From assembly GCA_032718475.1 (NCBI GenBank), contig JAUCBJ010000533.1:115057-179056 (forward strand): a DNA stretch of 64,000 bases. Reading direction: 5' to 3'. Position 1 is the first letter of the stretch; the number at the start of each line of letters is the position of its first letter. Made by a program: the position numbers and the translations under genes. The notes beneath the pieces are model-generated. The model was not told where the DNA came from. It was given only the letters and a program-made list of their open reading frames with translations, and made no database searches. This stretch comes from Nemertoderma westbladi (lineage: Eukaryota; Animalia; Xenacoelomorpha). Below are positions 4,201-37,412 of this stretch, piece after piece.

Positions 4201-4418
4201 CGACGTTGACGACTCTCTTCCCTTATCTCACCTAATTACCAAATCTTCTTCTGCACATTCTTATAGCACTCGTCTGGCCTCCTCTGGTCTATTTCACATA
4301 TAAATCGATGCAAGGCCCCCTTCTCTGGAACGCTTTATCTGAATCTATCCGTAACAGTCCTAGTCTTGAAATGTTTAAACGTCGGTTAAAATATCATTTA
4401 CTCCAGTGCAGTTATTAA
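4201..4418 (+). mobile_element. 3' fragment of a CR1/L2-group LINE ORF2
   Basis: Translates as HSYSTRLASSGLFHI / QGPLLWNALSESIRNSPSLEMFKRRLKYHLL*, the typical H.Y.TR...WN.L...FK C-terminus, also seen in the LINEs at 39606 and 61722. Confidence 0.8.
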
Positions 4419-4942: not shown

Positions 4943-7900
4943 CTAGAAAGCCAGTGGCCCTTCGGGCCACGGCTTTCTAGTTCACAAGCCTATTCACCAT
5001 TCCAAACATTAATTAATTAATTAACTTAACAAAACTTCATATGATTGAGAGTGTTCTCTCAAACAAAAGGACTGATGCTGTTTTACTTTTCAGATACCTA
5101 CACTGGTCAACGTCATTCACATTGATGCAGCCTTATGATGTAGTACAGTAGACCTCTGACAATTATCAGCGTAAAAGCATTTTTAATAAATAAATGTGAG
5201 AATGTTTTTACTTTTCAGATTCAGATTTTTCGCACCCTAGCAGTAGACTGGAAATCCGCAGACTGGTTAGCGTCCTCCCCATACAAACAGCCTATGGTCA
5301 TCATGCCTTTCCCAAGTATAAGCAAAAAAGCATTAGAAACAACGAAATGGGAGAAGAATTTCACTTGAGACATTTCACCCTCTAGCGGCAGACTGAGAAA
5401 TTGCAGATTGGTCAGAGTTTTCCACAAACACGCAGTCTATGGTGTAGTAGACCTCTGCCAAGTACCAGGCTATAAGAATTATAAACAACGAAATGGGATA
5501 AGTTTTCACTTTCAGATATTTCGCCCCTTAGTGGCCGAATGGAGAACTGCAGGTAGTTGGGAGTCCTCCACAGACACACACCATATGGTGTAATACACAT
5601 CTGCCCAGTGTCAGCCTAAAAGCATTATTAATAACGAAATGGGATAAGGTTTTCACTTTCAGACATTTGGCCCCCTAGTGGCAGACAGAGGAATTGCAGA
5701 TTGGTCAGAGTTCTCCACAAACACGCAGTCTATGGTGTAGTAGACCTCTGCCAAGTATCAGCCTAAAAGCATTATAAACAACGAAATTGGATAAGGATTT
5801 CACTTTCAGATATTTCGCCCCCTAGCGGCCGAATGGAGAACTGCAGGTAGTTGGGCGTCCTCCACAGACACACACCATATGGTGTAATACACATCTGCCC
5901 AGTGTCAGCCTAAAAGCATTATTAATAACGAAATGGGATAAGGTTTTCACTTTCAGACATTTGGCCCCCTAGTGGCAGACAGAGGAATTGCAGATTGGTC
6001 AGAGTTCTCCACAAACACGCAGTCTATGGTGTAGTAGACCTCTGACAAGTATCAGCCTAAAAACATTATAAACATCAAAATGGGATAAGGTTTTCACGTT
6101 CAGACATTTCGCCCCCTAGCGGCCGAATAGAGAACTGCAGGTTGTTCAGCGTCCTCTTCAGACACACAGCCTATGGTGTAATACACATCTGCCAAGTGTC
6201 AGCCAAAAAGCATTATTAATAACGAAATGGTATAAGGTTTTCACTTTCAGACATTTGGCCCCCTAGTGGCAGACAGAGGAATTGCAGATTGGTCAGAGTT
6301 CTCCACAAACACGCAGCCTATGGTGTAGTAGACCTCTGCCAAGTATCAGGCTATAAGAATTATAAACAACGAAATGGGATAAGGTTTTCACTTTCAGATA
6401 TTTCGCCCCTTAGTGGCCGAATGGAGAACTGCAGGTAGTTGGGCGTCCTCCACAGACACACACCATATGGTGTAATACACATCTGCCCAGTGTCAGCCTA
6501 AAAGCATTATTAATAACGAAATGGGATAAGGTTTTCACTTTCAGACATTTGGCCCCCTAGTGGCAGACAGAGGAATTGCAGATTGGTCTTAGTTCTCCAC
6601 AAACACGCAGTCTTTGATGTAGTAGACCTCTGACAAGTATCAGCCTAAAAACATTATAAACATAAAAATGTGATAAGGTTTTCACGTTCAGACATTTCGC
6701 CCCCTAGCGGCCGAATAGAGAACTGCAGGTTGTTCGGCGTCCTCTTCAGACACACAGCCTATGGTGTAATACACATCTGCCAAGTGTCAGCCTAAAAGCA
6801 TTATTAATAACGAAATGGTATAAGGTTTTCACTTTCAGACATTTGGCCCCCTAGTGGCAGACAGAGGAATTGCAGATTGGTCAGAGTTCTCCACAAACAC
6901 GCAGCCTATGGTGTAGTAGACCTCTGCCAAGTACCAGGCTATAAGAATTATAAACAACGAAATGGGATAAGGTTTTCACTTTCAGATATTTCGCCCCTTA
7001 GTGGCCGAATGGAGAACTGCAGGTAGTTGGGCGTCCTCCACAGACACACTCCATATGGTGTAATACACATCTGCCCAGTGTCAGCCTAAAAGCATTATTA
7101 ATAACGAAATGGGATAAGGTTTTCACTTTCAGACATTTGGCCCCCTAGTGGCAGACAGAGGAATTGCAGATTAGTCAGAGTTCTCCACAAACACGCAGTC
7201 TATGGTGTAGTAGACCTCTGCCAAGTATCAGCCTAAAAGCATTATAAACAACGAAATTGGATAAGGATTTCACTTTCAGATATTTCGCCCCCTAGCGGCC
7301 GAATGGAGAACTGCAGGTAGTTGGGCATCCTCCACGGACACACCATATGGTGTAATACACATCTGCCAAGTGTCAGCCTAAAAGCATTATTAATAACGAA
7401 ATGGGATAAGGTTTTCACTTTCAGACATTTGGCCCCCTAGCGGTAGACTGGAGAAATGCAGACTGATTCTAGCTCCTCCCCAAACACGCTGTATTGTGTA
7501 GTAGACCTCTGCCAAGTATCAGCAAAAAAGCATTATAAACAAAGAAATGGGATAAGGTTTTCACTTTCAGATATTTCTCCCCCTAGCGGCAGACTGGGGA
7601 ATTGCAGATTGGTCAGCATCCTCCCCAAACACACAGCCTATGGTGTAGAAGACCTCTGCCATGTATCAGCTAAAAGGCTTTATAATAACGAAATGGGAGA
7701 TGTTTTCAGTTTCGGATATTTCGCCCCCTAGCGGCAGACTGGAGAACTGCAGATTGATCAGTGTCCTCCCAAACACACAGTCTATGGTCGGGAACAGATC
7801 TGCAAAGTATCATTTAGAACAGATTAAGTCTGGTATCAAAAAGTAGCATAATAGTCGATACCCAACGTGTCGAGTGACAGAATGAACTGCTAGGCCTACC

Positions 7901-8476: not shown

Positions 8477-10219
8477 TCAAATATCATTTAACGCCTCAAA
8501 ATAAGACCCAACGAAATCGTAAAACATTGTTGGCTCGCCACTTAAGCAGTTGGAATTAACATGTTTAACAAACTTAGTCGTTCCCTTTTCCCTATAAACT
8601 AAAGCCAAGTTGTTCCCTACCGGTTCCACAGTTAGTAGTTCCTCATTGTCCGCGACGTAGTTAGTTGCACCGCCGCATATAGCGTCCCAAACACCGTCTA
8701 CAAAGTAAAGAGCGATATCCAGAGAATCTCGGGAGAATTCGTGTGAATCTTCGTGAACTAGAGTGTAATCCCCGTGTGAGAACCGACGCAATGAGACACC
8801 GCACGCTGGGGTACCATTGGTGGATTCAGTACCTGTGTTACTATTGGATGACCCACACACTGTGTTCCTATTGACAGATTGAACTCCCGCATTCCTAATG
8901 GCTGACCCAGATACAGTGCTCCCATTGGTTGATTCAATTCCCGTGTTCGTATTGATTGGCAGCTCTTCACTATCAGAGGACTGAATATCCCCCACATCAC
9001 TCTCACTACCTTCACTAGTAGCCGCTAACTCGTGAAGCTTCAATCCGGTGCAGTTTGAGAGAAAAACAAAGAATTGTTCGCTTCGAAACAGCCGCAGACA
9101 TTTGCTAATCGCCATCGACTCACGTAAAGAGGATTCTAGGGCACGATGGTAATGGAATCTATTGGGAACAGCTAATGATTCCCAGGAAATGGAGCTTAAT
9201 TCCTCCAAAAGAGACGCGTAAACTCTGGGAAGGAAGAAATCTGTTAACTTAATCTGGCTTTCATCGCCAAACGTCTCTCGAATATCAGTCTGACAGGTGA
9301 GGTTTAAATATTTCGGATTAATAAACGAATTCAATTCAATTTCGTAGGAGATATGCCGAGTTAGGGGGAGCGGAGGCTGAATGTTGCGGTTATCCGTATA
9401 ATCTCCGTGATACCAACCCGACACGGAGAGTCGAGATCCCCTGGAATCAGAGAGGATCTCCGATACCTGATGGAAGGAAATCGGACTCACTTTAAATAAG
9501 ATTATTCGATTGCGTACAGGTGCGAGCCTTGCGACAATGTCGTCAGGTCTTCCTAAGGAGTCCACGGAGAATAGATCCAAAGTACCTCCGTTGTCTTCAG
9601 GTTTCCAGTCCGCGGATACCAGGTAGAAAGTAAACGCGATTCTTCGGTCGTCTAACATATCGTCGTGGCAGAGTAGGGTGTCTGTCCGTGAGTATCGAGA
9701 GCAGGATATGCTTATCGTGTCGTTCAGAACTATACCGCTCGCTTTGGCGACCCAATTCCTGAATCGCGAGTATAATTCCGTGCGAAACCGGTCTAAGGTC
9801 CGTCCTACAGGGCAACGACTTAAATCCTGCGATTGAGAAAATTGAAACAGGTCGTTGGATTTCTTATGAAACTCTAAGGATTTTACTTCCGTTTCGAGTT
9901 GTTCCAACACCGAGGCCTTGAGAAAATTGTCTACGATGACATACGGAAAGGGGTAACCATTGGAAAGAACTTTGAGAGTCCCAAAATTCCTAGTTTCGTG
10001 GGACTTTTCGCTTTCTGCTTTGGTCGCGAAGCGAAACAAGTTACTCCTTCCGTTGTTAAGGAGAGACTCATCACTACTCTCTGCGACAAACAGTTCGTCG
10101 TTTATAACGTTACTTCCGAAACCTTCTCGAAATTCCGGCTTAGATTTCTTTGGGTTCACGAATTCCGTATCAGGTGAACAATTGGTAATGCGCTTAACTG
10201 AATGGGAAGTAACATCCAT
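8477..10219 (-). CDS. OGFOD1: Prolyl 3-hydroxylase OGFOD1/Tpa1 (2OG-Fe(II) oxygenase), single coding exon, 580 aa
   Basis: KSNDLFQFSQSQDL, Fe-binding LLCHDD (HxD), RRIAFTFYLV, SFHQVSE, RLSVSGWYHG; C-terminal Ofd1-type domain with GDYTLVH and NNLALVYR...KFVKHVN. Confidence 0.93.
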   Translation of the reverse strand: MDVTSHSVKRITNCSPDTEFVNPKKSKPEFREGFGSNVINDELFVAESSDESLLNNGRSNLFRFATKAESEKSHETRNFGTLKVLSNGYPFPYVIVDNFLKASVLEQLETEVKSLEFHKKSNDLFQFSQSQDLSRCPVGRTLDRFRTELYSRFRNWVAKASGIVLNDTISISCSRYSRTDTLLCHDDMLDDRRIAFTFYLVSADWKPEDNGGTLDLFSVDSLGRPDDIVARLAPVRNRIILFKVSPISFHQVSEILSDSRGSRLSVSGWYHGDYTDNRNIQPPLPLTRHISYEIELNSFINPKYLNLTCQTDIRETFGDESQIKLTDFFLPRVYASLLEELSSISWESLAVPNRFHYHRALESSLRESMAISKCLRLFRSEQFFVFLSNCTGLKLHELAATSEGSESDVGDIQSSDSEELPINTNTGIESTNGSTVSGSAIRNAGVQSVNRNTVCGSSNSNTGTESTNGTPACGVSLRRFSHGDYTLVHEDSHEFSRDSLDIALYFVDGVWDAICGGATNYVADNEELLTVEPVGNNLALVYREKGTTKFVKHVNSNCLSGEPTMFYDFVGSYFEALNDI

Positions 10220-11688
10220 GTCTGACTATTGTTGAATACTGGCTAGTCAACTGGTCAATAAAATTAATAAAGTTTAATTTTCTACTGAACACAGGAACAT
10301 GATGGGGCAATCTGATTTTCCACTAAGTTAGGCCTAGTTTAGTGTTTAGGGCCTATTTTATAATTGTGAAATACATTGGGTGAGATCTTTCGTGCTGTAT
10401 TGCTGTATTATGCAATTTATAATTTTTACTATGAATGAATATCATTTTAAATTATTAGATACATGAAATATAGGCCTAGTTGAAAAAAAGTTGTCCCGGT
10501 AGTAGGCGGTAGTAGTAATTACAGAATTAAGTTGTAGGCCTAGTTGTGATTGTGACAGTGTCTTTAAACATTTCAATGTAATTGCAAGGCACCCACCCAC
10601 TGCTGCCTGCAGAAGCTCGAAACGTATTACGTATTATATAAGAACGCGTCAGCCCGTAATTAACAAGCAGAACTGGGATTGGCGCAAGTTTGTAGTGCTG
10701 CTTCAGTGCTTCCCAGTGGCTAGTTAATGTAGACTCATCATTCTTCGTTACACTGCCCTTTCCTTCCATATTTGGAACTCCACTCTTATTGTCTTTTCCC
10801 GGCATGGCCCCTTGAGAAAGTCTTCCTTTGTCTGGCGAGACCTACCGTTCAGCTGACTGCATTCAACCGTCTAGTCCATTGTATTGGATGCGTCTACTGC
10901 TGTACAAACGAATAACTACAGTATAACATAATAGTGAGAAATAACTTAATAACTACGACGGTGTAACTGGTCTACCGTAATAAAGAATGAAACAAAAATA
11001 AAAAAAAGAAACAAAAATAAAAATTCAGACTGAGGAAAGAGGTTGGAGGTCAAACTTAACTTAACTGTCTCTGTTTCAACTTGCATTCAAATTATATAAT
11101 TAGTAGAAAAAAAGCAGGGGTGGGGTTGGGTGGGGGGTTCATACTGTATCACTGAATTACGTCATTATTTCTAGAATATAAATATGTTATGTTTTGTTTA
11201 TGTTATGTTATTATTTAATGTTTAGTATATGGTGAACTAGAGGCGTACTAGCGTATGTTTATTGTATATGAGCGAGAGGCGTGCATATGCATCGATCAAC
11301 GTGGATTTATAGGCCAAGTACTCGGAAACAGGAACAACAATCTGACATCGCTTGTACTCCTAACATTACTCTACACAGTAGTGTACTGATATACACAGTA
11401 GTTAAGCAGCATTAAAAGCTTCAGCATGTAATAAATAAAATTAAATAGTTGGATATATAAATTCCTAACATAGATCTTTGAATGGATCGACAATCTTTGA
11501 TTATCCAAAAACGGATATCAAAATAGGATTCCGATTTTCTCGGTTGCATCGCATGCTACGCTACCTTTTCATAATGTTAATGGCGTCAAATATTACGCTG
11601 ATACGAATAACAGCAGATTTTTTAAATCAGTTATTATACGACATTTGTTTATACTTGATAAGGATAAAGACACATTTACTATACTCAC

Positions 11689-15221: not shown

Positions 15222-18200
15222 TGTTCAAACCCCTAGGAGCCTATATTTTCGCCCTATCTAGTCAATGTCAGGGATAGTTGGTTACCTACTAAATTCAGAC
15301 GTTTTTCGTGGTCGCCTTTATCTTACCTGTGTTAATGCTATGTTTATCGTGTGAATTAAAGCAAAGTAAAGCAAGAAATATATTTTATCTGTTTATAGTA
15401 TTGATAATAGCGGACTTCGAACTGGTTCTGAAAGGACCAAATCATGACAAACAAACTAGTCTGAATTTATAATAACCTACGTCAGTACCCTTAAACAGCA
15501 ATACTGCAATACGGTATTTATCAGTTATGGATCCCCCCCCCCCCCCGATGATACGTCGCTGAAGAAAAAGCAAACAGCTGCGCGTCATATGAAGATGAGA
15601 TTCGTCAGGTTTACTCGGAATCTTTAACACAGATGAAAGATTTCCGTGAGAAGAAGGCAGATATTGAGTCAATTTCGTCCGGTAAAACTCAACCCGCTGT
15701 AACTACGGGAGTGGGAGGTGAACTTATGACGAAACTTGTTGATATTTTAAATAATTTACAGAGAAATAGTGAAGCCCAAGAACAATTACGGCTGATACAT
15801 TTAAAGATATAGCGGACAGTTTCGGGAAATTGGAGGTTGCAAAGTCGGAGAAAAAATTGGCTGGTTTAAATGTTCCCGATTGGAATGGCAACCACAAGAA
15901 TATTTCGGTTGGAAACGATTGTTTCAGCACACGATGAAAACTCACAATGAGACGGACAGTGAAAGTCAAATTACGAGAATGCTCAGTGTTATTCACGCGG
16001 AACACAAAAGTATGGTTTGGTGTATGAAAAATATAGATGACATTTGGACAGAGCTTGAGCGAACAGTTAAAGTTGATAATGTATTGAGATTAGTAATTAA
16101 AGATATTAAGAGTTTAAGGCCACTTAAATATTCTGTTGGAGATCGTAGAAGACCTGGAGAATTGCGATACTTCGTTCAACAAGTCCGGTTGTTTTCGACT
16201 CGTATGGATGATCTTGGAGAACAAGAGGAATTGAAATCCAAGTACCTTTTCAATGATTTAATACAGAAACTCGATGGTGATACCGCTTGTGTTTATGAAG
16301 AATTTATAAAGATAAGTTTTGGGGAGAAAGATATAAACTTTTTGTTAGAATATTTGGAGGAGAAGTCGACAATTATTTTGAACAGTAATTGTTCTAGAGC
16401 GCCTGTACAAGACAATACGAGTTCTCGATCGAGTTCACAAATTTATAGCAATGGTATAGTACGATCAAGAAATGTACATTGTGAACTTGGTTGTGAGAAT
16501 AATCATGAGATTTATTTATGTCCTGTGTTTCAACAATGTGCTGTAGATGATCGATTTAAATATGTTACAAGCACTGGACGATGTTTGAGATGTCTTCGGA
16601 AAGGTCACCACAGAATCAAGTGTGGATCTAATTTTAAATGTAGTATTTGTCAGGGCCGGGCCATCATCACTCGTTGCTTCATAGACAAAGAAGTAATCCA
16701 TCTACAGGTTCGACTGCGGTTAATGCAGTTCATAACGTAGTTCCTGGAGTTCCTCCTTCAATCCCTTCACAAATATGGATTCCTTCACCAGCTGCTCCGA
16801 ATTTTGTACCAAACGTGACTAACAATGCTTTTAATGGACCTATAAATGAAGACGATGTTTATAATGCTTTGTTGCCTATTTTAGAGATTAAAGTATTGAA
16901 TTCTCAAGGATGGTTAATTCCTGCTACCGGTACATGTTTAAAAGATTCTTGATCTGATACAACGTTGATTACAAGTCATTGTACAGAAAAACTAGGATTA
17001 TATGGTGAGGAGACAGAGCTCTAAAGGCAGCTGGTGGAAAGCTACAAAGAGAAGCCTCACAACATTTGAAATTAAATATCTGCTCGTCTGACTGCTCATC
17101 TGGACTTTATGATGTTCCAGCTTTTACATTGAAAATGTTGAGCGCTCCAGCAAAGAAAATTCGCGATGATGTGTTCTCGAACAACCACCACTTGCATCGA
17201 GTTAGAGAGAGGGTTTATAAGAAGGGTGGTGTGGTTGATATTATTCTAGGTGAAGACCAAGCATACTTATTGTATGATACTGAAATAATTGTGAGTCATG
17301 ATAAACCTAGAATGAAACCGATTGCCAAGTGTTGTAGATTGGGTTGGACAATTACTGGACCCGTAGCTTCCAAAGATATGTCAGTTTCCCGCAAATGCAG
17401 CAGTGAAGATAATTCAGACAAACGCATTTACAGAAGTAGCACCAATGAATAATGACATTCAGTCAATGTTTTTGTCGGATATTGTTGGAATTAAGGCTAC
17501 AAAGGAGTGTGTTTGTTCTGAGAAAGAGAGAGAAAAAGCTGCTTTCATTAAACATGTAAATAAATATACCGATATCTCAGATTCAGGTCATGTAAGGACA
17601 AAGTTACCCTGGAAGCCAGGATTCCCAGAAGTTCTGGAGAATAATTATAGTAAAGCTATGATGTGCATGAAGAATAGAGAAGATAAACTGAAATCAAGCG
17701 GACAATTAGAACTTTATAATAAGGCTATGCAAGAAATATTTGACAGGAAAGTGGTGGAGAAGGTTGAAGACAAGGATGTGTTGGATGGTAAACCAGCTTG
17801 GTACCTAAACCATCATGGTATATTGCAACCACAAAAACTGTCAACTCCTATTCGAATTGTATTTAATTCGCCGCTAAATATAAAGGCTTGTGTCTCAATG
17901 ATGGGTTCGAGAAGAGACCAGATTATTCAAATAGTTTATAGTTAATAGTTTATGAAGTAGTTATATTTGGAGATATTGCAAAGATGTTTAACATGATTGA
18001 ACTGTACGAGGAAGATCGTAGATTTCACCATTTTCTTTGGCGTTTTGGAGATTAAACTCTCAGTCCAACTGTTTATCAATGGATGAGACTGTCGTTCAGA
18101 GATAAGCCTGCTCCAGATATAGCTAACAATGCAGTTCGGTTTCTTATTACAAAGTATGGAGGAGAGTTTCCTAAAGCATCAAATGTATTATCAGAGAGAA

Positions 18201-18455
18201 TATTGATGACATCAGTCATTCTGAAACTAATGTTACGGAGGCCAATACCATTATAAATGAGATTGATGAACTCCTGAATAAAGGAAAATTTAGAGTTAAG
18301 GGTTGGCACTCGAATGATAAAGAAGTTGACAGAATGCCGATGATCGAGTTACAGATGTTTTGGGTCATAAATGGTCTAAAGATAGTGTTAAGGATAAGTT
18401 TACATTGAAACGCCGAGACTTGTCTTATTTGAGAGTTGACCACCATACAGCGCAT
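15222..18455 (+). mobile_element. Degenerate BEL/Pao LTR retrotransposon (putative LTR, gag, protease, partial RT)
   Basis: Putative LTR 15222-~15453 (TG...CA); three Cys/His knuckles (C...H...C, CLRCLRKGHHRIKC, CSIC...HHSLLH); protease DS*SDTT; GWTITGP; RT motifs LPWK, WYLNHH, RIVFNS, GDIAKMF; many frameshifts and stops; truncated before integrase. Confidence 0.9.
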
Positions 18456-18459
18456 CAGG

Positions 18460-19845
18460 ACATCAGTACAGTACAGTACTACAGTAGGTACCAGTAACAG
18501 TAACTGTATACCTACAGACCTAGAAGATAGGAAAGACTGAATACCGGAATACCAGAAGAGGACCGGTAGCTAAGAGACCAGTAGGTTGGATCTAACCACC
18601 ACCAAGCCAGGGTCTACTACAGTAGAGCCCAAATAATACATAATCGAACATCTCCCCCAAGAACAATGTAGGAGACATTTGTACTGAAAAAAAAATCCAA
18701 CCACCACCAATAGGTCAGCTCATTAAACTTCGAATCTTGCTGGTTGCTTGTGAGTTCTAGAACTGCGCCTGGGAAGATCGTCAGCGAACTGTACTTGTTT
18801 TTGAGGCGTAATGTCATGAAGAGAAGAGTCATCTGGGATGGAATGCAGATAACGACGATTTCTCCAATACACCCGACCATTGTCTAGTTCAATCCTGTAA
18901 TCTCTCCTAGTACCACGGGAAAGGACGATACCAGATTTGTTCCATAGTTTGGAATATGCACTCTGGATGCAAACTCGGGAACCATAAATGATTTCATGGC
19001 CTTTACAGCCCCCTCTGCATGACCATTAGACTGAGGATTATCAGGAGTAGAATACTCAGGGATGATATTCCATTCGGATAAGAAATCATGATAACATGCT
19101 GAATTAAATTGTGTACCACCATCAGAATGAAGGCAATTTGGAATACCGAAATCTTTGAACCATCCTGGAAGGGCTGAAATAACGATCAGCACGCCAAGAA
19201 TGAACGCATGGCCACCCAGAATATCTTTCGACATAAGCCAGGTATGACCACGTGCTGAAGTAGAGAAGATCAGCAGAGCAATCCTCCATTGGAAGACATG
19301 GATGATGGTCGCTGTGGAGAGACTCTTTAGGTAAACTTGGTTGATAAAGTTGACACTGGGGACAAGAATTGACAATGTTTGTAATATCGCTATTGATACC
19401 AGGCCAGAATACAGTTCGCCTAGCTCTCCTCTTAGAACGTTCAATGCCCTGATGAGCATCATGAAGGTGCTTCAGGACATCCTTGCGGAGGGAAGATGGA
19501 ATTACAATCCGGGAACCTAATAAAATAAGATTATCTTCACAAGATAACTGATGTCGCACATTCCAGAATGGGCGTATGTGCACAGAACATTGTGCGGATA
19601 TTGAGGGAAATCCAGAAATAACAGCGTCCACCAAAGCCATATAAGAAATATCATCCTTTGCAGATGATCGGATAGACTCAATATATGAATCCTTGAGATG
19701 ACTTTCTAGCATCAGATACAACAATTGAGGTAGACACGTGACGAATGACTGCGGAAACATGGTCATTGACATTTGTATCACAAAGAATATTCTCTGGAGT
19801 AGGATCCGAAACAGGGGCATGGGAAAGTGCGTCTGGGACAGTACG
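18460..19845 (-). mobile_element. Gypsy (Mag-like) pol 3' part: RNase H end, integrase, PPT and start of 3' LTR
   Basis: PDALS, HDAHQGIERSKRRARRTVFWPG...CPQC (H2C2), SDGGTQF, PQSNGHAE, YWRNRRYL...PRRSSR; purine tract GGGGGAGA followed by TGTTCG at 18650. Frameshifted and internally deleted. Confidence 0.88.
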
Positions 19846-19935
19846 AAAGCGAGAAATAAAGAAATTAGTATTGTATGAACCACGAGTGTTATAGTTATGA
19901 ACAGTATTAGATAAATGAAAGAGATTTGTTAAACC
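19846..19935 (-). mobile_element. Short CR1/L2-group LINE C-terminal fragment
   Basis: Translates LTNLFHLSNTVHNYNTRGSYNTNFFISRFRT (H.YNTR motif), wedged between two LTR-element fragments. Confidence 0.6.
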
Positions 19936-21874
19936 AGTTCTCTTCTGTTCTCTTAAAACCTCCAGTTCGGTTTCGAGTTCAGTAGTGGTGGGTTCAGGCT
20001 CCATTATTCCAATACCACTCTTATGGCAATATGTGCAATAGCACGGAACAGATCCTCATAAGTCTCGTATTGTGATTGTACTACCTGTACGATTATTCAA
20101 AATTGTCCTAAGTTAGTTTCTTGAATTTCAACTCGATATGCCAAACACCTGGCTCGACTTGTATAAGATCAATCGGAGTAATTGACACTTCCATTTTTGT
20201 TGATTTTGTTCATCTGGTGATTTAAGTGACTTGAATCTTTGGACAAAGTTTTTATAGTTCGATTAGATTTTGAACCACGTCTTTATACCAATTCAAATAC
20301 TCGTATTTTCCTCATAGTGTGTGCTTGGGGTAGCACAGAAGTTTGGTTTCAACTGATTATTCTCGATAATCCTCCACTTGGAATCCCAGCAAGTTGTTTC
20401 AGAATTTGCAGTCCAATTCTGCCTCTAATTATTTAGAATTATGTTGCCGTCAGTTCCTGAATCAAGGGAATGGACGCCAATGTAAGTTCCCGGGGTTTGC
20501 GCTAGATCCCGAAATACTATTCACCGGAATTATTGGTGTTGGGGAAACTTAGTATTTGTAATGCAGATCGTGAGAAAAGAAAAGTTTGGATTGAATGTTA
20601 ATTTATTCACTGCTAACTGATTCCTTATAGACGAACTGTTGCATCAACTAATTCTTCACAATCTGATTCTAAATAATTTTGGGCTCCCATACACCAAATA
20701 ATAAGAATAAACACATACATTGGTAATAAACCCACACTACAAACAATTTATTTAGTATTTACTTTATAGGATGACAGACTTACCCATGTCTAGTCAGTGT
20801 CTGTCATGTCTGGCAAGGGACTACAGCTTCGGTTACGTTCCGAGTCCCTTTCAGGCTCGTAATAGCTCAATTGACTGCAGTCCACTCTGGCCGTCGGTGT
20901 CGGGTGAGGATAGACAACATCCGTTATGTTCCGAGTCCTTTTCAGGGTCGTAATAGCTCCATCAGCCACCTGTAACTCCATCCGTTAATATCTGTAGTGT
21001 CTGGTGAGAGGATGCAGTTTTCCATTACGTTCCGAGTCCTTTTCAGGCTCGTAATAGCTCCATAGAATGTAAACCACTCCGTCTGTCGATATCTGCTGGT
21101 CAAGCGAGGAAATATGGTTTTCCGTCACATTCCGAGTCCTTTTCAGGCTCGTAATAGCTCCATAGACCATAATCCTCTCTGTAAGTCACAGGACATCAGT
21201 GCGAGCAGAGGAGAGCAATTTCCATTGCGTTCCAAGTCCTTTTCAGGCTCGTAATAACTCCATAGATCACAAACCCCGCTCCGTCATTGTCGGTCCTTTG
21301 TGGAGTGCTATGCTGATTGGTTCCAAGTCATTTTCAGACTCGTACTATGCACAGCAAACTAGCACACTGCGCAGGCAGTCCAAAGTCCGGCTCCCTTCCC
21401 ACTGTGTGGCCTCCTGGTCTGCTTGTTTCCGAGTCCTTTTCAGGCTCGTACTACTCACAGTAAAAGAACCTACTGGGGAAATCCGAGAAGATCCAACCAA
21501 ATTCCCACTGCGTGGCCTCCTGGACTGCTTGTTTCCGAGTCCTTTTCAGGTTCATACTACTCACAGTAAAAGAACCCACTGGGGAATAGGTTGTCCCTTC
21601 GCTCTAGGCTCGGACGCACTGCCTAGGCTAGGCTGTCAGGATTTGTACCTGAAGCCAAGTACTTGATTCGTTGAACATCAGGGCCACCTTTTAGCTTTGG
21701 AAAGCCGACAATTTAATAGTTAGCCTTTCCGGAAAACAGCCCGTAATCGAATAATTTTGGGTTTTATAACGTCTAGTTTTTTGCCCACAATGCCCGGGTA
21801 TATTTGGAATTTTCATTTGGAATTAGTTTGTGATTCGGTGGGTACCCGGAGCCAGAATGAAAAGAACGCAAACA
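19936..21874 (-). mobile_element. 5' part of an LTR retrotransposon (probably Gypsy): 1394-bp LTR (21874-20481), PBS and degenerate leader/gag start
   Basis: Minus strand TGTTTG...CTTACA termini; tTGGCGTCC PBS-like sequence immediately after; AATAAA at ~20605; TATA-like boxes at ~21765 and ~20765. LTR start differs from the one at 18650, so this is a separate element. Confidence 0.72.
20830..21590. repeat. Array of 8 conserved ~30-35 bp direct repeats with mostly non-repeated spacers, inside the LTR
   Basis: TTCC(G/A)AGTCCTTTTCAGGCTCGTA(A/C)TA with few substitutions starts at 20838, 20929, 21030, 21130, 21230, 21321, 21427, 21533 (period 91-106 bp). Confidence 0.95.
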
Positions 21875-21875
21875 T

Positions 21876-21971
21876 AAAGTAAAGCAAGAAATATGTTTTA
21901 TCTGTTTATAGTATTGATAATAGTGGACTTCGAACTGGATCTGAAAGTACCAAATCATGACAAACAAACTA
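21876..21971 (+). mobile_element. Partial second copy of the putative BEL LTR 3' portion
   Basis: Near-identical to ~15364-15458 (aaagtaaagcaagaaatat...ggacttcgaactgg...atcatgacaaacaaacta). Confidence 0.8.
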
Positions 21972-22229
21972 TGACGTATTGAGAATATGGTACTGAGGTT
22001 ATATCAGGAAGTTATGGGGTAACTGATCACAAGTTCCTCTATGGAGAGATCTCCCTCCATGTTCGAGATGACTGAGGGAGGATTGCGTCATTGCCGTTGT
22101 TGGCATTACCAGTTTGACATGCTAATACAGTAACCTGAATTTAAAGTTGTTGAGTTTCAAATCTGTAGTTTAAAGCTGTTTAGTTTAAAATTTGTAGGCA
22201 TCAATAAGACCTAAGGCTGATATTTAATG

Positions 22230-23170
22230 TAAACTTTCAGACACTAGCAGTTCAACAGTCTCCCACTGAAGGGCTATGTCTAAACATTAAATGTTCTTCC
22301 ATTTCTTGCTTTTAATTCTTTCAAGCTGAAACTTAAGCAGATTTGTAATAAATAATTAGTTATGTCATTCAAATGGGGCTAATCCGTCTGCAGTTCTTTA
22401 TTCTATACTGCTAGATGGTGAAATGTCTAGAAGTGAAATCTTTTGACCCATTCTGTTATTTATGATACATCCAAGTTGAAACTTGTCAGATATGTGCTAG
22501 AACACATCCTATATCTTTGTGGGTTCGGGAATTCTCCACTCTGCTGTCTGCTGCTAGAGGGCGAAATGTATGAAGTGATAACCTTATCCACTTCCTTGAT
22601 CTTAATCTGTTTTAAGCTGAATCATATAATATATGTACCAGACCGCATGCTGTGTCTTTTTGAGGAAAGTGATTTATCAGCAGTTTTCTAGTCTGCCGTT
22701 AGAGGTCGAACTGTCTGTAAGTGAAAACCTTCACACATTTCCGTGATTTGAATTAATTCGTTTAAGCTGAATCTTGTCTTATACAGTACTGTATGTTGTA
22801 CTATAGGCCTACCCGTCTACCACATGGTGTGTCTTTGTGAAGGTGATTGGTCTGCAGCAGTTTTCCAGTCTAGATGGCGTAATACCTGAAAGTGAAAAGC
22901 TTCCAACTTTCCTTGATTTTAATCCATTTAAGCTGAAACTTTGCGTTTATACTAGAGAAAAATGGCTGCTTATTTGTGGGATGGTACTCCATCTACACTT
23001 CTACAGTTTGCCGCTAGAGGTCGACATATCTGAAAGTGAAAACCTTCTTTCACTTCGTTATCCGTTTAAGTTCCATTTGGCGGACATGCTAGACTGTAGA
23101 CCATCCATAGGCTACAGTACCTCTTTGTTGGGACGGTAATCTCTCAGCAGTTCTCCATTCTAGCGCTAGT
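22230..23170. repeat. Old, diverged copies (~6) of the 147-bp satellite in opposite orientation
   Basis: E.g. gtctgctgctagagggcgaaatgtatgaagtgataaccttatcc matches the reverse complement of the 5190-7810 monomer. Confidence 0.85.
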
Positions 23171-23258
23171 GCACTGATTTCATAACATTTTAGTAATGTC
23201 TATGGGAAATTATGCCATATCAATTTCAGAATATTCCACCAAGAGCCAAGACGATGGG

Positions 23259-26200
23259 TGTAAACGGATTCAATTCCACTTCATTACCCACCAGAAAATG
23301 GGACTAGCGGCATTTTAGCAATATGTTGGGGATACGAGATTACCAATATTAATCTCGTATCATAAACAACATTGGGGGGGGGGGGGGGGGGTGTGGGGCG
23401 ACACAAGCTCCAAAGCCACATAGGAAGGTTAGAGGTCAAACCACCTCGGAGGGAATACAGCTAGTAGAGGCTAGCAGGGGAGGGAAAACACTCCCTGAGA
23501 GTGCCAAGGTGACAAGTAGTATATTAGCCAATAGAGGGGAGGGAAGCACGTGATAGGGAACAGGAAAGCATCCATTGGGTAGAAGGCCAAAGTAGAGTAA
23601 GAGGTGAAGCAATATTCAATGTATTAACCATATATTATCTCAGATTGTTGGATTGGTGTATCAGTTGTGTTATTCAGTTTAGGGCAGACCAGTCATAGTT
23701 ATTGACCAACAACGCCATACTGGTAACTATTTATCTGTATTTCTGCATCTTATTCTATTGTGCTATCACTGCGAGTATTTACTAATATCGAAAGACAACA
23801 TCAAATTCTTATTGTTTTTCCCCTACGGCCTCGGCCAAAGCTGTCAGCACAATCCCCAAGCAGAACGGTGACGCGTACTATAACAACCCGGTCGGGATCC
23901 CTGATCCCGTCACAATCAATAACTCCACCAACTGTTAACATAAACTGTGACTGTGAGAAGGAAAGGAAAGATGAGCGACAGAGAGCCCCGATTATCTGAG
24001 TGAGAGAGGACGCCGCCGCGGACCCCGGACGATACCAACCAAATGATCCGTGAGGCCGCGACGAGACGGTATCGGACTGCCACACCGGATTCGCCAACGA
24101 GGGACGATCCGGCTGCCCAAGCGGAGGGCGGCTGCCAACCACGAGAGGGAGACGAGTCGATGCACGATGGCGGTCGGAGTACCGAAGTCGCCGGCCAGCC
24201 ACAGGAAAGGGGCGACAGACGGACCAACGGGAACGGCGACGGTGGAGCTGCCGGTACGACGCCGAACCAGGAGAGGAGGAGGTCGGGACAAGTGATCGGC
24301 TATGACGGGCCTACAACGCCACCAAGAAGTTACTGAAGGAGGCCAGAGAAGGGAGAAAGGTAGACCAGCCTAAACTACGTCAGAGACTAGATGAGTCGAA
24401 TAAACATTTTCGATATTTAGTCCGATTTGGACAGGGAGAACTGGCGAGTGAGAGAGCGAGGGGGGTCATCCGGAACTGTTTGAATTGTGGCAGTCCGGGG
24501 TAATGGAGCCTGAAGTAGAGTACGTAGGGCCTTACTTAGTGGATGCTAGGAGAATTAAGTTAGTGGGTTGGGTGGATCCGCACGAGGGCGAACCTGAGTT
24601 TAACCCCGAGGATTCGGTCTCGTCGGTTAGCGAGAACCCCCATAAAGCAGGGGAAAGTAAGCAGGACAGAGAGGCGATGGGAGTCCGTCGCGACCGATAA
24701 GTCTGCTACATCCTCCGCAAAAGCAAGAAGGGTGTTAGAAATAGATCTGGCGTGTCAACTAGATATGGTGGCGCTAGACCAGAAGGAGTTAGAGAGGCAG
24801 CTGGATGAGGGAACTGCGTTATTAGAGAAAGAGAGAGAGTTAGCGAGGGAATGTAGAGAGAGGGCCGAGAGGGCAGCGAGGAACTGTAGAGAGCAAGAAG
24901 AGAGAGAGACAAATGAGCGTAAAGAGCGAGAGGCGAGAGTAGAGAATGAGCGTAGAGAGCGGGAGGCAAGAGAGATAGAATTAGCGAACCAAAGTTTGCG
25001 AGAGGATAGAGAGAGAGAGAGCGGGAAAGCGTATGCGGGATGATATGCATGCCCGGTTAAGGGGGCTTATGCAATACCAGGCAAAGCAAAAGCGCCGATT
25101 AGAACTGGCCCAGTTGGGATTATCAGAGAGTGAGGCCGGTTCGGGTAGTATTTATGAGGAGCCCGAAGTAATGGAAACGTTTCTTAATACCCCACTTACA
25201 GGCACCGGATGACAGACCCAGGACTGGTGTAACCGTACGGGCGGGGGGGGGGGGGGGGGGTAATAATAATACGTTAGAAGGAATCAATATTAATAGTACC
25301 GTAGTAGACAACCCTAATCAAACCTTTATTGCAGGAAGTAATCTTTTATCCGGTAATAACAATTCTAATTTAAATACACAAAATAATAATAATTCTAATT
25401 TAAATATAGAAAATAATAATAATTTTAATTTAAATATACAAAATAATTCAAATAATAGTCCTGATTCCGAGCAAAATAATTTAAATAATTTGGATAACAA
25501 TAATATTGATAATGGTGCTATTAATACAAACGTAGGAGACATAGGTGGTCTGGGCAGCGAGAGCCTGTAAGACCACGTAGTTACGCAGGGAGTAGCGGGG
25601 GTGAGTCACCCCGACGGGAGCCTGCAAGGCCACGTAGTTAGGTAGGGAGTAGTGGGGGTGAGTCAACCCGACGGGAGCCTGCAAGGCCACGCAGTTGCAC
25701 AGAGAGAGGCGGGGGTGAGTAGACCCAGCCGCAGTAGAGACAATGCGTCGACTAGAGAGGGGCATAGAAGCAAAGTAGGATGTAGTGAAGTAAGAAGTGA
25801 CGAGTGGGGGGGGGGGGGGGGGCTACGGGCGCCCCACCATGGGAGATTAGTGGCGAGAGGGGCGGGGGGCAGAGAATGTCCCACAAGAGGGGCGTAGAAG
25901 CGAAGGAAGAGGTAGTGAAGTAAGAAGTGGTGAGTGGGGGGGGGGGGGGGGGGCTACGGGCACCCCACCACGAGAGATTAGTGGCGAGAGGGGGGGGGGG
26001 CGGAGAATGTCCCACGAGCGTCGGCGGATAATGCGCGGGGCGAGTTAGGTGAACTGCGGCACCCGACGACGGAGAATAGTAGGGGGGTTATTGCGAGTAT
26101 CCCCAGGAGCGTCCAACTGGGCAGAGAGAGAGATGTTGACGCCGAGAGCGGGCGAGCGAGAAGACATCAGTCGGAAGAGGGAAGAAGAACAGTGGAGTTT

Positions 26201-29200
26201 ATCCGGGAGGTCGAAGAGAGATCTCACGAGCGGGATCGCTACACTGAAGAGAGAAGAAGTGAAGAGATAGAAGAAGCGTTGCTACGAGCAACCGGAGAGC
26301 GAGGATGGACAGCGAACCGTCGGTAGCAGAGATGGAGTTAGAGAGCCAGTGGGGTCGAACTCTGGGAGATTGCCGTCACCCCGGAGAGACGCAGCCTGGC
26401 GAGATATACCATACACCGGGAGAAGGGTACAGGATGTACCGGTATGAGGACAGGAGAGGGGATCAAAGAGAAACTTCCCGACGGGATATAGCTGCCAATC
26501 GAGAGTACGGTGGTAGTGGGGAGGACTTCTTGGAATATTCGAGAAGATTAAACTTCGGTCCGGAAGGACACAGGCAGACTGCAGGACATACTGTAGGCCT
26601 TACTGCACATACTATAGGCCATGATGGAAGAGATAGTGTAAGCGATAGGGTAGCGTGGACGACGTGATTAGATCCGGAAGTCGCGGCGTACATACCGGTA
26701 GGTAGGCAAGAAGCAGATAGGCCTATACAGGTACCTGCACACCAGTATGACTATAATATGCAGGGATATAACATATACCCAGGGGAGGGGGGAGTTATTG
26801 CCGATAGATGTGTGGGCCCCAATATATTAACATCAACCCCAGTACCTAACACAACACCGGTGGGGGGGGGGGGGGGGGACAGGGTGACATTCCCCCATTA
26901 CAATATCAGCAATACACTCATCCGAGAATAATAACACCGAACCCCCTGGACCAGAACAGATCGTGCGATATGGAGATATGGAGGGGGCCGTTATCCCCAA
27001 TGATATATCCGACACAGAAGAAATCAACAGGCCTGACGGGCAAACCGCACCCAACAGGAGAGTCTGTACAGCATCTGTCGAACCCATTGGAAGCACAGGC
27101 GATGGGTATGGCAACACTCATTGATGCGTTAAGACCAGGATCGAGCTATCACCAGTTGAGCCACTTAAATTCGACGAAAGCAGACTGGAAGAATACCTGC
27201 AATTCCGACGCATGTACAGTAATGAAATATTAACTAAGAATCTGAAGCAGGCGGAGTGCTTAAAACATTTACAAGTTTACACGGGGGGCCCAGCATACGA
27301 TATCGTGAGGCAGTATCAAGGTATCGAGGGTGGCTTCACGACTGCATGGTGGGCCCTAGACAGGGAATACGGACACCCTGCCAAGATCATGCGGCAGACC
27401 TTGAGGGGAATAACATCGGGTGGCCTACAGGATAACCCTGTCAGTATAAAGAATTTCGCGAACAAGGTCGAGAAGGCGTTAATCGTGCTAAAGACCTTGG
27501 ATGCGCCATACGAGCTCAACGCATCGAATAACATCACCACGATAGCTCAGGCACTGCTAATCTGGCTAAGAAACAAATGGAGGAAGATCGCCTTCTCCAC
27601 CCGGGAGAAGAAAGGTGCGGAACCGGCCCTAGAGGAAACTCGAACTTCCTCAATTATGAAGCGGAGTTGATTACAGACCCAGTCTACAGTGAGGATAGTT
27701 TGGGGAAGGCGCCGAAAGCTGAATACAACAGGCCTAAACCCAAACATAATCCAGCAGATGCATTCCCGAGAGTGAGACAGTCGCTACCACATGCGGCAAC
27801 GCAGGGGACTACAAGTCCACAGTTAGCTGGGAGTAGGGCCACACCGTGGCAGGGACAGAAACAAAATAACAACACGAACAAATATAATCCCAACACACCC
27901 AGTAGGCCGAGTCCAAATAACCAAAACACTAAACCAGTAGATATGAATCTACGCGCAATACGTGAAGGGCTATACAGGGAGCGCTACGATCCAGGATATG
28001 AATGTCAATTGCATAGGGATGGGACCTATAAGACCATGAGTCATAAGCATTGGCAAGCATTGCCTAAACAGGATCGTGTAGCCTACGCGGATACAAACAG
28101 ACTATGTCATCGATGCGTGGTAGAAGGACACAGATTCGGAGAGTGTAGAGAAACACCGACAGAATATGACGAGACTGGAGGCCAAACAATGGCTACGAGC
28201 ACGACAGGAGCAAGAAGAAAGAGGAAAGTACTACTCGGGGTAGTACCAGTGAGGATATCAGGAAAGGGCGGCCGATCAGTCACAACATTGATGCTGGTCG
28301 ACAGCTGAGCAGCCTTCACGCTGGTGGAGAATTGGGTGGCCGATGAGATATGGTTAGAGACGAGGCCGAGTAGGATGGCAGTAACTACTATCTCGAGCAA
28401 GGATGAGGTCCTGGAGATGAGGACGGGATGGTGCAAGATATCAGCAATAGCACCAGTATGTGATTATGGGGCGACCATCGACCCCATACAGATAATAGAA
28501 TCGATTAATATAAGCGCCAGGCGACCCACCAGGATCGAGGTCGAGCAATACCGGTTCCTGGACAATATTGATTTCTCAATACTGGAGGGGACGTCTCAAA
28601 GGTATCCATCATAGTCGGAATGGATTGTCCAACGGCCCACGAGTGAGTATGGACCATATTCGGAGAGAATAAGCAGCGGGATCCGACAGCGATTCTCACG
28701 CCGTTCGGATGGAAGAGGAGAGTTAAGTTAGAGATTAGGGAGTGTGGTATATAGACATACCACGAGAGTAGTAGTAGGGTACATAGTACCGAGAGAGTTA
28801 GTGGTTGTGGGCACCGAAAGCGCCACATAGAAAGAGGGTAGAGGGTATTGTATGTAGGTATACCATAGAAGTAGTGGCAGAGGGGTTGTGGGCACCGAAA
28901 GCGCCACGTAGAAAGAGAGTAGAGGGTATGGTATGTAGGTATACCATAGAGGTAGTAGCAGAGGGGTTGTGGGCACCGAAAGTGCCACGTATTGAGAGAG
29001 TGAAGGGTGTGGTATGTAGGTATTAGGTAGTAGCATTATGTAGGTAGTAGCAGTATTAGGGTACATAGTACCAAGTTAGAGGCTGTGGGCACCGAGAGCG
29101 CCATGTAGTAAGAGAGTAGGGGGTATGGTATGTAGGTATACCATAGAGGTAGTAGCAGAGGGGTTGTGGGCACCGAAAGCGCCACGTAGTAAGAGAGTAG

Positions 29201-30638
29201 GGGGTATGGTATGTAGGTATACCATAGAAGTAGTAGCAGAGGGATTGTGGGCACCGAAAGCGCCACATAGTAAGAGAGTGAAGGGTGTGGTATGTAGGTA
29301 GTAGCATTATTAGGGTACATAGTACCATAGAAGTTAGAAGTTGTGGGCACCAAGAGCGCCACGTAGTAAGAAAGTAAAGAGTATATATGCATAGCATAGT
29401 AGTGGTAGGGTACATAGTAAGAAGGAAGTAGAGAAGTAGATAGGATAATAGCACAGACAGGGGGAACATAAGAAAAATAAAATAAGACTAAAGGAAAATT
29501 GGCACTTTGGGAGTGGTAGAGAACACAGGACATTGTGGAGCAGTGGGGAGGGGCCAGCTCATGGGCCTTGTCTGCCTCAAGCCGATGGACTGGGGCAAGT
29601 TCCGGGGGGATTACGGAGCGGGCACAGGACATTGTGGAGCAGTGGCGATGGGCCAGCTTATGAGGCTTGTCTGCCACAAGCCAATGGACTGGGGTAAGTT
29701 CCGAGAGGAGTATGAGAGGAGTACAAGGGAAGCATGGAGAGGAGGTGTTGAAACATGAGCGAGAGAGAGGAGTGCAATTCAAGTGTGGGGAGCGAGCAGT
29801 AAGAGAGAGAGTAAGGGACAATGAGGTCCGTGAGAGAGAGAGAGAGTAAGGGACAGAGGGGTCAAATTAGAGTGAGGTTTTTTGAAAATTGTGAGAAAAG
29901 AGTCCACAATTGTCTCAAACGGAGACGTCAGATACCTTGGTGCAACATAGCTCGTGATTGCACCAAGGAGGGGTAGCAACAACATACCGAGGGGGGCGGC
30001 CTGGAAAGCCGACCCCGAGTAAAGAACTCCACCCCACACCCGATATTAGATTGGGTTCCAGCGGAATTGAAGCGTACTCGAGGTTGATGCTATCTTCTCA
30101 TCGGGAAGATAGCATGGGGGGTGTGTAAGCGGATTCAATTCCACTTCATTACCCACCAGAAAATTGGACTAGCGGAAATAGGAAGGTTAGAGGTCAAACC
30201 ACCTCGGAGGGAATACAGCTAGTAGAGGCTAGCAGGGGAGGGAAAACACTCCCAGAGAGTGCCAAGTTGACAAGTAGTATATTAGCCAATAGAGGGGAGG
30301 GAAGCATGTGATAGGGAACAGCAAAGCATTCATTGGGTAGAAGGCCAAAGTAGAGTAAGAGGTGAAGCAATATTCAATGTATTAACCATATATTATCTCA
30401 GATTGTTGGATTGGTGTATCAGTTGTGTTATTCAGTTTAGAGCAGACCGGTCATAGTTATTGACCGACACCGCCATACCGGTAACTATTTATCTGTATTT
30501 CTGCATCTTATTATATTGTGCTATCACTGCGAGTGTTTACTAATATCGAAAGACAACATCAAACTCTTATTGTTTTTCCCCTACGGCCTCGGCCAAAGCT
30601 GTTAGCACAACCCTGTCGGGATCCCTGATCCCGTCACA
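23259..30638 (+). mobile_element. Non-autonomous BEL/Pao LTR retrotransposon with both LTRs and 5-bp TSD
   Basis: 5' LTR 23259-23914 and 3' LTR 30124-30638 (TGTAA...TCACA); TSD ATGGG on both sides; G-rich tract before the 3' LTR; degenerate gag (LQVYTGGPA...AWWALDREYG; LCHRCVVEGHRFGEC), protease LVDS*A, AILTPFGW; no RT or integrase seen. Confidence 0.93.
28790..29400. repeat. ~81-bp tandem repeats inside the BEL element
   Basis: Seven copies of core TGTGGGCACCGAAAGCGCCAC with purine-rich linkers. Confidence 0.9.
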
Positions 30639-31313: not shown

Positions 31314-31606
31314 TCCACCTTGGTGTAGTGGTTGCATTGAATTCACATCTCCTGTAGGTCGTGGATTCGATCCTCACATGGGCCAGGGCAGTTGTCGTTT
31401 CGGCACGAATGCTCTAAAGGGACCAGCCAGGCCGCATCTCTGCCTTGCATCATTAAGTGGTAGCTAAATGAGTACTAGAGATTCCTCTGGGGAGTAAAGT
31501 TCTGGGGGGACCGCACTGGAAATAAGTCGTCAGACTTTGTGCGTAATCCCTGACCTAGCGGCCGAAGAAAATTTACTTTTACCTTTACTTTACTTTTACT
31601 TTTATA
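31314..31606 (+). mobile_element. tRNA-derived SINE with LINE-type 3' tail
   Basis: A box TGGTGTAGTGG, B box GGATTCGATCC, central taaatgagtac...ctggggagtaaag segment, 3' stem-loop shared with the LINE at 39373-39414, (TTTAC)n tail. Confidence 0.85.
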
Positions 31607-35017: not shown

Positions 35018-35518
35018 TACCGGTACGTTTTAGATAGTTACAGTAGAAATATATTGTTCCATTTGTATCATATAGGCAGGCCTAATGTTTTATTTTATTT
35101 TATTGCAATAAACAGATAAACAATCTGACAATCATACTGTCATGGCATCGGTACGACGGTACGGTACCGGTACGGTAACGAACGGTACAATCTGACAGTA
35201 CACTGGTTAGCTGGTACAGGTACTACTGTACTAAGAAATAAAAATATAATAATGCTGTATTAGTATTGTAGTCATAGTTCATAGTCTGATAGTCGGAGAT
35301 AATGATGTAGGCCTATTGTATACGTACTCAGGTACATAGGCCTACTTTTCCTTATTTAGCATATTACAGTATTAATGAAAATCGTCTTGCTTAATAATGT
35401 CAATGTTTATACCTCTCTCATCTCTGCCAGTCTGCTCTACATCTGCTTGCATTTAGATTAATATAGAATACACAATATATTATATTAATTGATTGCCCTA
35501 CTCCAACCACGTTCTGAT

Positions 35519-36967: not shown

Positions 36968-36992
36968 GTGAGTCGAACTGTCTATGTCTAAC

Positions 36993-37250
36993 ACAGATAG
37001 AAGGGGGGGGGGGGGGGGGGGGGGCTGGACGTAATAAAAATTGATCCCTCTCCAGGGGAAATTCGACGCAAATAACAGCTGGTTACTCTCAAAAATAAAA
37101 CTGTAACCTGTTCTATTGTGTTAAGTTTATTGTTTTGGTTAAAATAACGTCCCACTGTAATCTGCTCCTTTCCCTAAATTGAGAATTTAATTTAACATTG
37201 AGGCGGGATATTAATTCGCAAAGACGGGATTTGTGGCCAGTTTCCCCCCG
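36993..37250. repeat. Dispersed repeat, copy 2 (copy 1 at 4512-4745)
   Basis: Direct similarity over ~230 bp to 4512-4745. Confidence 0.85.
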
Positions 37251-37412
37251 GTCTGTCGTTAGGCTGTCTCGTCTAACGACAGACCCAGACTGCCAAAGTA
37301 CCTCCAATTAGTAATTACCGTTTCGGACACCGTTTAGTGTTAGTAGGAAGAGCGAGTTGTTATGAAACTCATTATTACTTCATATAGAACAACATATCAC
37401 ATCACCGGAGTA

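Follow-up and report, generated by a model that had tools for sequence, protein, structure and literature searches.

A tandem array of predicted hairpins in a decayed retrotransposon LTR, likely derived from a captured Pol III-type gene

Results

Genes and mobile elements of the window

The window, that is, the whole stretch of 64,000 nucleotides that was analysed, carries an SBF/MTMR13-like gene at 35489-51047 on the plus strand, with apparently two very large exons and a LINE in an intron, and an intronless OGFOD1-like gene at 8477-10225 on the minus strand. The structures of the two genes are those of an unusually intron-poor animal genome. Judged by the SBF/MTMR13-like protein, whose best relative is 54% identical, this animal is distant from those sampled. 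ARAGORN found no tRNA gene in the window. Two canonical A-box plus B-box pairs, at 31363-31416 and 45583-45624 (both minus; 24.6 and 20.3 bits), where ARAGORN likewise calls no tRNA, are probably the heads of tRNA-derived SINEs. Tandem repeats lie at 5147-7788, 22247-23061, 1737-4201, 43466-44609 and 54154-55657; among them are a 147/294-bp satellite, with inverted and diverged copies near the LTR described below, and 35-, 18- and 47-bp arrays.

A nest of decayed elements occupies 15300-23500 (Table 1). A Gypsy-type integrase remnant with high summed contig depth is inserted there into a Bel/Pao-like pol, and its LTR-like end is unrelated to the LTR that carries the array. The latter LTR appears, from the sequence at its right flank, to have inserted into a 96-bp piece whose second copy sits just upstream of the Bel/Pao-like gag. 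The sequences that follow the two copies of this piece (15473-15510 and 21972-22003) look alike by eye in inverted orientation, possibly through a micro-inversion. Further along, a second Bel/Pao-type element (23420-30613; DUF1759 match) has 436-bp LTRs with 96.6% mutual identity and contains numerous tandem repeats, 30-131 bp in size; its pol appears to be absent.

The data comprise one decayed copy of the array LTR together with public contigs mapped from sequencing runs.

Table 1. Positions of the elements, signals, predicted hairpins and units discussed in the text
Feature	Position	Strand	Remarks
Bel/Pao-like gag-pol	within 15300-23500	+	assigned by eye; no Pfam match above cut-off
Gypsy-type integrase remnant	18421-19928	-	purine tract and short LTR-like end
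Decayed reading frame after PBS	19950-20460	-	many stops and frame changes
PBS-like site, TGGCG-type	20472-20479	-	one base past LTR end
LTR, 1394 bp, TGT...ACA on minus	20481-21874	-	ends read from sequence
AATAAA polyadenylation signal	20602-20607	-	sequence motif
TATA box favoured as LTR promoter	20763-20768	-	161 nt before AATAAA
Truncated unit 0	20817-20851	+	6-7-bp stem of a GG-starting segment with the 3' half of core 1; single, predicted
Degenerate head-to-tail array, ~100-bp units, two subtypes (1-5; 6-8)	20817-21560	.	sequence comparison
Junction hairpin 1	20841-20859	-	predicted fold: 7-bp stem, GAAA loop, bulged A
Unit 1, 89 nt	20854-20942	+	GG start, perfect A box at +10, pairable ends, B-box-like element, T4
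A box of unit 1	20863-20873	+	10.2 bits, top 0.01% of window
Junction hairpins 2-5	20932-20950, 21033-21051, 21133-21151, 21233-21251	-	predicted folds
Units 2-5	20945-21043, 21046-21143, 21146-21243, 21246-21334	+	A boxes weakened (-4.3 to 2.0 bits)
Junction hairpins 6-8	21324-21342, 21430-21448, 21536-21554	-	predicted folds
Units 6-7	21337-21440, 21443-21546	+	A box lost at +10; pairable ends and T4 kept
TATA-like box of the earlier note	21763-21768	-	106 nt from LTR start, 1161 nt before AATAAA
Right flank, 96-bp piece	21876-21971	+	96% identical to 15363-15458

The array lies in a long LTR, more likely in U3

An earlier note on this DNA had reported a 1394-bp TG...CA LTR, and the same ends were read here, followed by a PBS-like site. 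Short inverted TG...CA ends, an AATAAA signal and a TATA box were all found, as expected from the LTR motifs described in PMC3601003. The LTR is probably the 5' LTR of a decayed Gypsy-like element, the superfamily assignment being putative; no second full copy of it was found in the window, and the element's pol is missing from the window too. The decayed frame behind the PBS-like site is a candidate gag-like frame by its position and by a Cys-rich motif seen by eye, and it gave no Pfam match and no protein relative. One contig from run X2 spans 20047-20608.

Summed contig depth rises at the left end of the LTR in four of four runs (332/828, 245/449, 517/961 and 58/223 for bins 20219-20519 and 20520-20820, respectively). 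In X1-X3 the LTR stands at tens of times the depth of unique flanking contigs, a measure that is not copy number; the high depth therefore indicates that the LTR belongs to a multi-copy family, and nothing more. A right LTR end near 21790-21860, suggested by the depth bins, was dropped for 21874, where the CA end abuts the duplicated flank.

The earlier note had placed the array between its TATA-like box and the AATAAA, and thus in the element's RNA. In class III retroviral LTRs about 180 bp separate TATA from AATAAA, according to PMC3601003, which also cautions that U3/R borders need RNA data. Of the two TATA boxes, the second, at 20768, precedes the AATAAA by 161 nt, and the other is only 106 nt from the start of the LTR; with this geometry the array more likely belongs to U3, immediately ahead of the promoter, than to R. 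U3 belongs to the genomic RNA through the 3' LTR, and the array would therefore still be carried in genomic RNA.

Two further predicted structures lie near the array. Just ahead of the favoured TATA box, at 20771-20807, stands a perfect inverted repeat of 9 bp, which is predicted to form a double hairpin with core 1 on the minus strand (z -2.55). Upstream of the array on the sense strand, a tRNA T-arm-like 5-bp stem with a 7-nt loop is found at 21636-21652 (minus), with a B-box score of 9.4.

A diverged tandem repeat with a conserved core

Eight cores recur at periods of 91, 101, 100, 100, 91, 106 and 106 bp, exactly as first described, and a 21-nt core pattern allowing up to three mismatches has eight matches in the window against 0.01 expected. 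The repeat had been called nearly invariant. This is true of cores 1-5, which are 85-92.5% identical pairwise, but cores 6-8 are only 65-72.5% identical to them, and 21 of the 37 core columns are invariant. The final 106-bp period is a recent duplication (94% identity). Spacers 1-5, taken earlier for distinct sequences, proved to be homologous (z 2.2-5.4 in 10/10 pairs; 55-67% identity), and spacers 6 and 7 are alike (z 7.6) with no match to spacers 1-5 (z <=1.6, 10 pairs). It follows that the array is a tandem repeat whose units have diverged and fall into two subtypes. Short complementary spacer ends do exist, as the earlier note had pointed out, but none of the seven spacers folds better than z -1.6 on either strand.

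Divergence is uneven along the repeat. When units 1-5 were compared, the best 36-column window showed 89% identity versus 50% in the other 43 gap-free columns, a contrast reached in 0 of 20,000 column permutations. At the level of sequence comparison, this suggests selection on the core, in agreement with the original argument from the contrast between repeat and spacer, and the array is a real and probably selected feature. The length of the spacers is conserved more than their sequence.

Seven array variants were present among 40 of 1248 variant rows, all of them in spacers 2, 3 and 7, and in three runs, which come from two samples, each of these variant positions is seen in 4-19 contigs per run. 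The occurrence of spacers 2, 3 and 7 in many contigs thus indicates that they are shared family sequence. Among 24 loose ends (of 1344) and 32 pieces (of 5545), contig ends at 21028 and 21059 and unit-unit joints show that other copies have additional types of body or arrange their units differently. Run X5, in which coverage is scant or absent across the right part of the array, carries no weight here.

Searches for relatives of the array gave no match longer than 14 nt to the unit bodies elsewhere in the window and none in 50,697 phage records. Pattern scans found no relatives in metagenomes or phages; scans of viral contigs returned 3, 1 and 0 loci, and each of these four had one short core motif and was treated as a chance match. 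Two other identities for the core were considered and rejected. A hammerhead or retrozyme has no Rfam match, and by eye the core does not have the conserved G and stem II geometry of the hammerhead consensus; a C/D-box reading of the core was rejected as well.

The sense strand is predicted to form a bulged-A, GAAA-capped hairpin at each junction

On the minus strand, which is the sense strand of the element, each core can form the bulged-A hairpin with a GAAA loop that had been noticed earlier. Of its pairs, 53/56 are kept (7, 6, 7, 7, 7, 6, 7 and 6 of 7 in cores 1-8), and the GAAA loop is present in all eight cores. Five of the eight departures from the stem are G-U pairs and three break a pair. 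The minus-strand folds of cores 1-8 have z scores of -1.9, -1.4, -3.9, -4.5, -3.3, -1.8, -3.1 and 0.0, so that four of the eight fall between -3.1 and -4.5, while on the plus strand only one core, at -3.0, does comparably besides core 3. When the same bases are paired in the plus-strand way, 37-39 of 42 pairs are kept, with C-A mismatches. The substitutions thus lean towards the minus-strand hairpin, which is retained in cores 7-8, where the A box discussed below is gone. A sense-strand hairpin on the element's RNA is plausible on these models, and the suggestion that it serves as a packaging or protein-binding scaffold stays a candidate.

Several observations temper this picture. None of nine pairs changed on both sides and four changed on one side only, in a set of eight sequences with low power; further counts of such double changes gave 0/9 and 0/6. 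CpG sites account for three of the five G-U departures, so that these three may reflect nothing but decay, and two of them may represent one shared event. Conservation also reaches about 8-10 nt past the hairpin on both sides and, in units 1-5, into the A-box core, which the hairpin alone leaves unexplained. The earlier note had held that spacers aligning as a uniformly diverged tandem repeat, together with stems lacking covariation and an absence of discrete RNAs, or else a plain transcription-factor site in untranscribed U3, would speak against its case: the spacers do align, covariation was not seen and the array is probably in U3, but the divergence is not uniform.

The plus strand carries units with Pol III-type signals and vault-like ends

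The earlier note had overlooked the plus strand, on which the repeat is the junction of two Pol III-type units with vault-like ends. Read in this direction, each core begins with a B-box-like element and TTTT, and after two further bases come GG and, at +10, an A box. This order yields seven units of 89-104 nt with pairable ends, in which the first six bases can pair with the bases ahead of the T run; the GAAA loop of the minus-strand hairpin is the complement of that T run. T4 ends 7/7 complete units, and units 2 and 3 have an extra internal T4, at which their spacer stems end, although these stems are short. The truncated unit 0 follows the plus-strand register, with a stem that forms on either strand, and the end at core 1 is T3 only.

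The matrices used to score A and B boxes were those of PMC12498455, whose Table 1 lists a murine gammaherpesvirus TMER A1 box identical to the A box of unit 1. Overall, the A box at +10 is perfect in one of the seven units, weak in four and absent in two; in bits, unit 1 reaches 10.2 and units 3 and 4 reach 2.0 each, the A box being negative or absent at the remaining five cores. The ungapped B box reaches at most 3.2 bits at the core, which falls short of a canonical internal B box. A one-base deletion is needed in 8/8 cores, after which five of them score 11-12.5 bits, and the element overlaps the terminal stem. When only the A+B pair is scored, unit 1 comes about ninth among 147 on the plus strand of the window, in which two other sites are canonical. 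The combined B-T4-A layout arose in 0-2 of 4000 shuffles per core, yet its thresholds were passed by core 3 only (1/8). The terminal stem is present in the minimum-energy fold of 4/7 units, and the folds of whole units do not surpass those of shuffled sequences (z -1.9 to 0.1). The unit bodies have plus-strand z scores of -1.2 to 1.2 and do not form pre-miRNA hairpins with a 3' T run, and a pre-miRNA-like cluster, one of the roles suggested earlier, finds no more encouragement in the spacers, which fold no better than chance.

Vault RNAs are 80-140 nt long (PMC10087102), and conserved ends around a variable centre are their pattern (PMC7058938); the units likewise have paired 5'/3' ends, a T-run terminator, a variable centre and a length in that range. 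As reference ends we used two human vault RNA primers printed in PMC12992080. Units 1-7 match these ends at 21, 20, 21, 21, 19, 16 and 17 of 26 positions, while the best match elsewhere in the window, among 8.4 million start/end pairs, is 18/26. The single stem difference from the primers falls on both sides of one pair. Simulated hairpins score at least 21 at rates of 5 (GNRA), 25 (GAAA) and 294 (CCT-GAAA-AGG) per million, but both the vault comparison and its windows were picked after the fact, and allowing for several hundred alternatives gives p of about 0.004-0.2. Rfam returned no vault or tRNA match at E<=10, and otherwise sub-threshold matches or none. Homology search for vault RNAs is hard (PMC7058938); lophotrochozoan homologues are cited in PMC2770079. 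Thus, the units resemble vault-type Pol III genes, yet we do not class them as vault RNAs, because they have no canonical B box and no Rfam match and fold no better than shuffles.

Discussion

A proposed capture of a small-RNA gene, kept for its junction hairpins

Since the unit ends are vault-like on the plus strand and are predicted to form a hairpin on the minus strand, the element likely captured and multiplied a small-RNA gene. We propose that a Pol III-type gene was captured, multiplied in U3 and is now kept for its junction hairpins as repeated protein-binding sites, a reading to which we give a probability of roughly 0.4. In this scheme, a gene of the vault or tRNA-promoter type would have entered U3 backwards, antisense to the element, and then been duplicated in tandem. 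Because the ends of the gene are complementary and the copies lie only two bases apart, each junction would fold on the sense strand into a stem-loop with a bulged A and a GAAA cap. The promoter boxes and bodies would then have decayed while the stem-loop was retained, so that Gag, or a host export or stability factor, would find eight places to bind towards the 3' end of the genomic RNA, the partner being a guess. Considered separately, the origin of the units in a Pol III gene seems to us somewhat better than an even bet, and a present function of the modelled sense-strand hairpin has odds slightly above even; both are judgements and were not computed. As for the route of capture, a retrovirus packages about one vault RNA per virion (PMC4378196), and by analogy packaging of a vault RNA could in principle have been the way in, though the antisense orientation fits an insertion at the DNA level better.

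The strongest competing explanation, which we nevertheless consider doubtful, is that the units are active Pol III genes giving 75-104-nt vault-like RNAs antisense to the element, whose role would be to decoy or mimic the partners of host proteins that bind RNA or serve in defence; the GAAA hairpin would then be a mere mirror image of terminator and terminal stem. The rarity of the B-T4-A layout in shuffles argues for it, as do the vault-end match of up to 21/26, the terminal stem in the minimum-energy fold of 4/7 units, and T4 in every complete unit, with T3 only at core 1, where the upstream unit is truncated. Conserved ends about a variable centre also fit, being the vault pattern (PMC7058938), and non-canonical boxes are used by BLV and simian foamy virus (PMC12498455, PMC3993851). 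The BLV B box lies past the terminator (PMC12498455), an arrangement with which the internal T4 in units 2 and 3 could agree. These points are countered by the single core of eight that passes the layout test, by the A box that is negative or absent in five of eight cores, by an ungapped B box of at most 3.2 bits and an A+B rank of about ninth of 147 for unit 1, and by whole-unit folds no better than shuffles. Moreover, the 2-nt gap between units leaves no free upstream DNA for TFIIIB, and the substitutions lean to the minus strand. A variant in which a captured vault-type RNA gene was expanded in U3 into seven diversified Pol III genes, their antisense small RNAs mimicking or titrating a host protein of RNA binding or defence and the same bases also serving as the GNRA array on the genomic RNA, would be a transposon counterpart of the adenovirus VA RNAs and the foamy-virus LTR miRNAs; we regard it as unlikely.

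Alternatively, the cores might act as DNA, binding TFIIIC or some other factor at intervals of about 100 bp directly upstream of the TATA box, as an enhancer or as a chromatin barrier protecting the LTR promoter, with RNA structure irrelevant. The end of the array within about 50-70 bp of the favoured TATA box, spacer length kept more than sequence, and the absence of covariation are consistent with this, and regulatory motifs have probably accumulated in U3 (PMC3601003). We find it improbable in view of the non-canonical B box, the G-U-type departures, which suggest RNA, and the conserved block, which is self-complementary and, at 36-40 bp, exceeds a typical factor site. Equally improbable in our view is ordinary tandem duplication, with the stem-loop selected or the cores homogenised by template switching, and a likeness to Pol III genes that arose by chance. 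Homologous spacers, the joints between different units and the different bodies in other copies, and the lack of an Rfam match agree with such a history; a vault-end score of 21, rare under the hairpin nulls, a perfect A box at exactly +10 and a truncated unit 0 in the plus-strand register do not. The CRISPR-like guide cassette or pre-miRNA cluster suggested earlier, in which the repeat would be a handle for acquired spacers, has only its layout and the additional body types at loose contig ends to recommend it, and is largely refuted and very improbable, given that spacers 1-5 are mutually homologous, that spacers 2, 3 and 7 recur in 4-19 contigs per run, that no spacer folds like a pre-miRNA, and that the bodies have no match longer than 14 nt in the window and none among the phage records.

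Small-RNA cassettes transcribed by Pol III are known from the LTRs of foamy viruses, and single tRNA- or 5S-derived promoters from miniature retrotransposons. If the units of this array were expressed, they would represent a transposon making its own non-coding RNA effectors, and the cassette would give a handle on the function of vault RNA ends. If only their origin holds, a captured gene with complementary ends would have become an array of RNA hairpins on the opposite strand by a simple route.

Relation to known systems

Multivalent stem-loops are familiar as packaging or protein-binding signals from bulged-A hairpins of the MS2 operator type and from retroviral psi loops. The predicted array hairpin shares with them a short stem, a single bulged A, a tetraloop and repetition, but its place in U3 puts it at the 3' end of the RNA, whereas those signals lie near the 5' leader, and it is not accompanied by covariation.

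The closest described systems are the Pol III cassettes of foamy viruses and BLV and the TRIMp3 elements, none of which is a tandem, antisense, vault-like array in a long LTR; no account of tandem vault-like units in the LTR of a retrotransposon came up in full-text literature searches of a mostly open-access collection, judged on listings and the openings of abstracts. The TRIMp3 elements Helenus, Ajax and Cassandra are miniature, with total lengths of 311-1263 bp (Kojima 2024, PMC10886601), and their tRNA- or 5S-derived promoter is thought to drive the element's RNA (PMC10886601). The array LTR differs in being 1394 bp long by itself, in keeping TATA and AATAAA, and in holding eight antisense copies with terminators, and neither ARAGORN nor Rfam detected a tRNA in it. 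With vault RNAs, the units have in common a GG start, an A box at +10 (perfect in unit 1), paired ends, T4, a length of 89-104 nt and a variable centre (PMC7058938, PMC10087102; see also PMC12992080, PMC11012908, PMC7904556). They differ from them in the absence of a canonical internal B box and of an Rfam Vault match, in their location inside a mobile element, and in having no room for upstream CRE/TRE elements. The Pol III miRNA clusters of the foamy virus SFVagm (PMC3993851) and of BLV (PMC12498455) likewise consist of short units within a long LTR, in or near U3, and have A-box, B-box-like and T-run signals with degenerate boxes, of which the array shows candidate counterparts. In contrast to these clusters, the units of the array are predicted ones, tandem paralogues that stand 2 nt apart and antisense, without pre-miRNA hairpins, in a retrotransposon-like LTR of an invertebrate.
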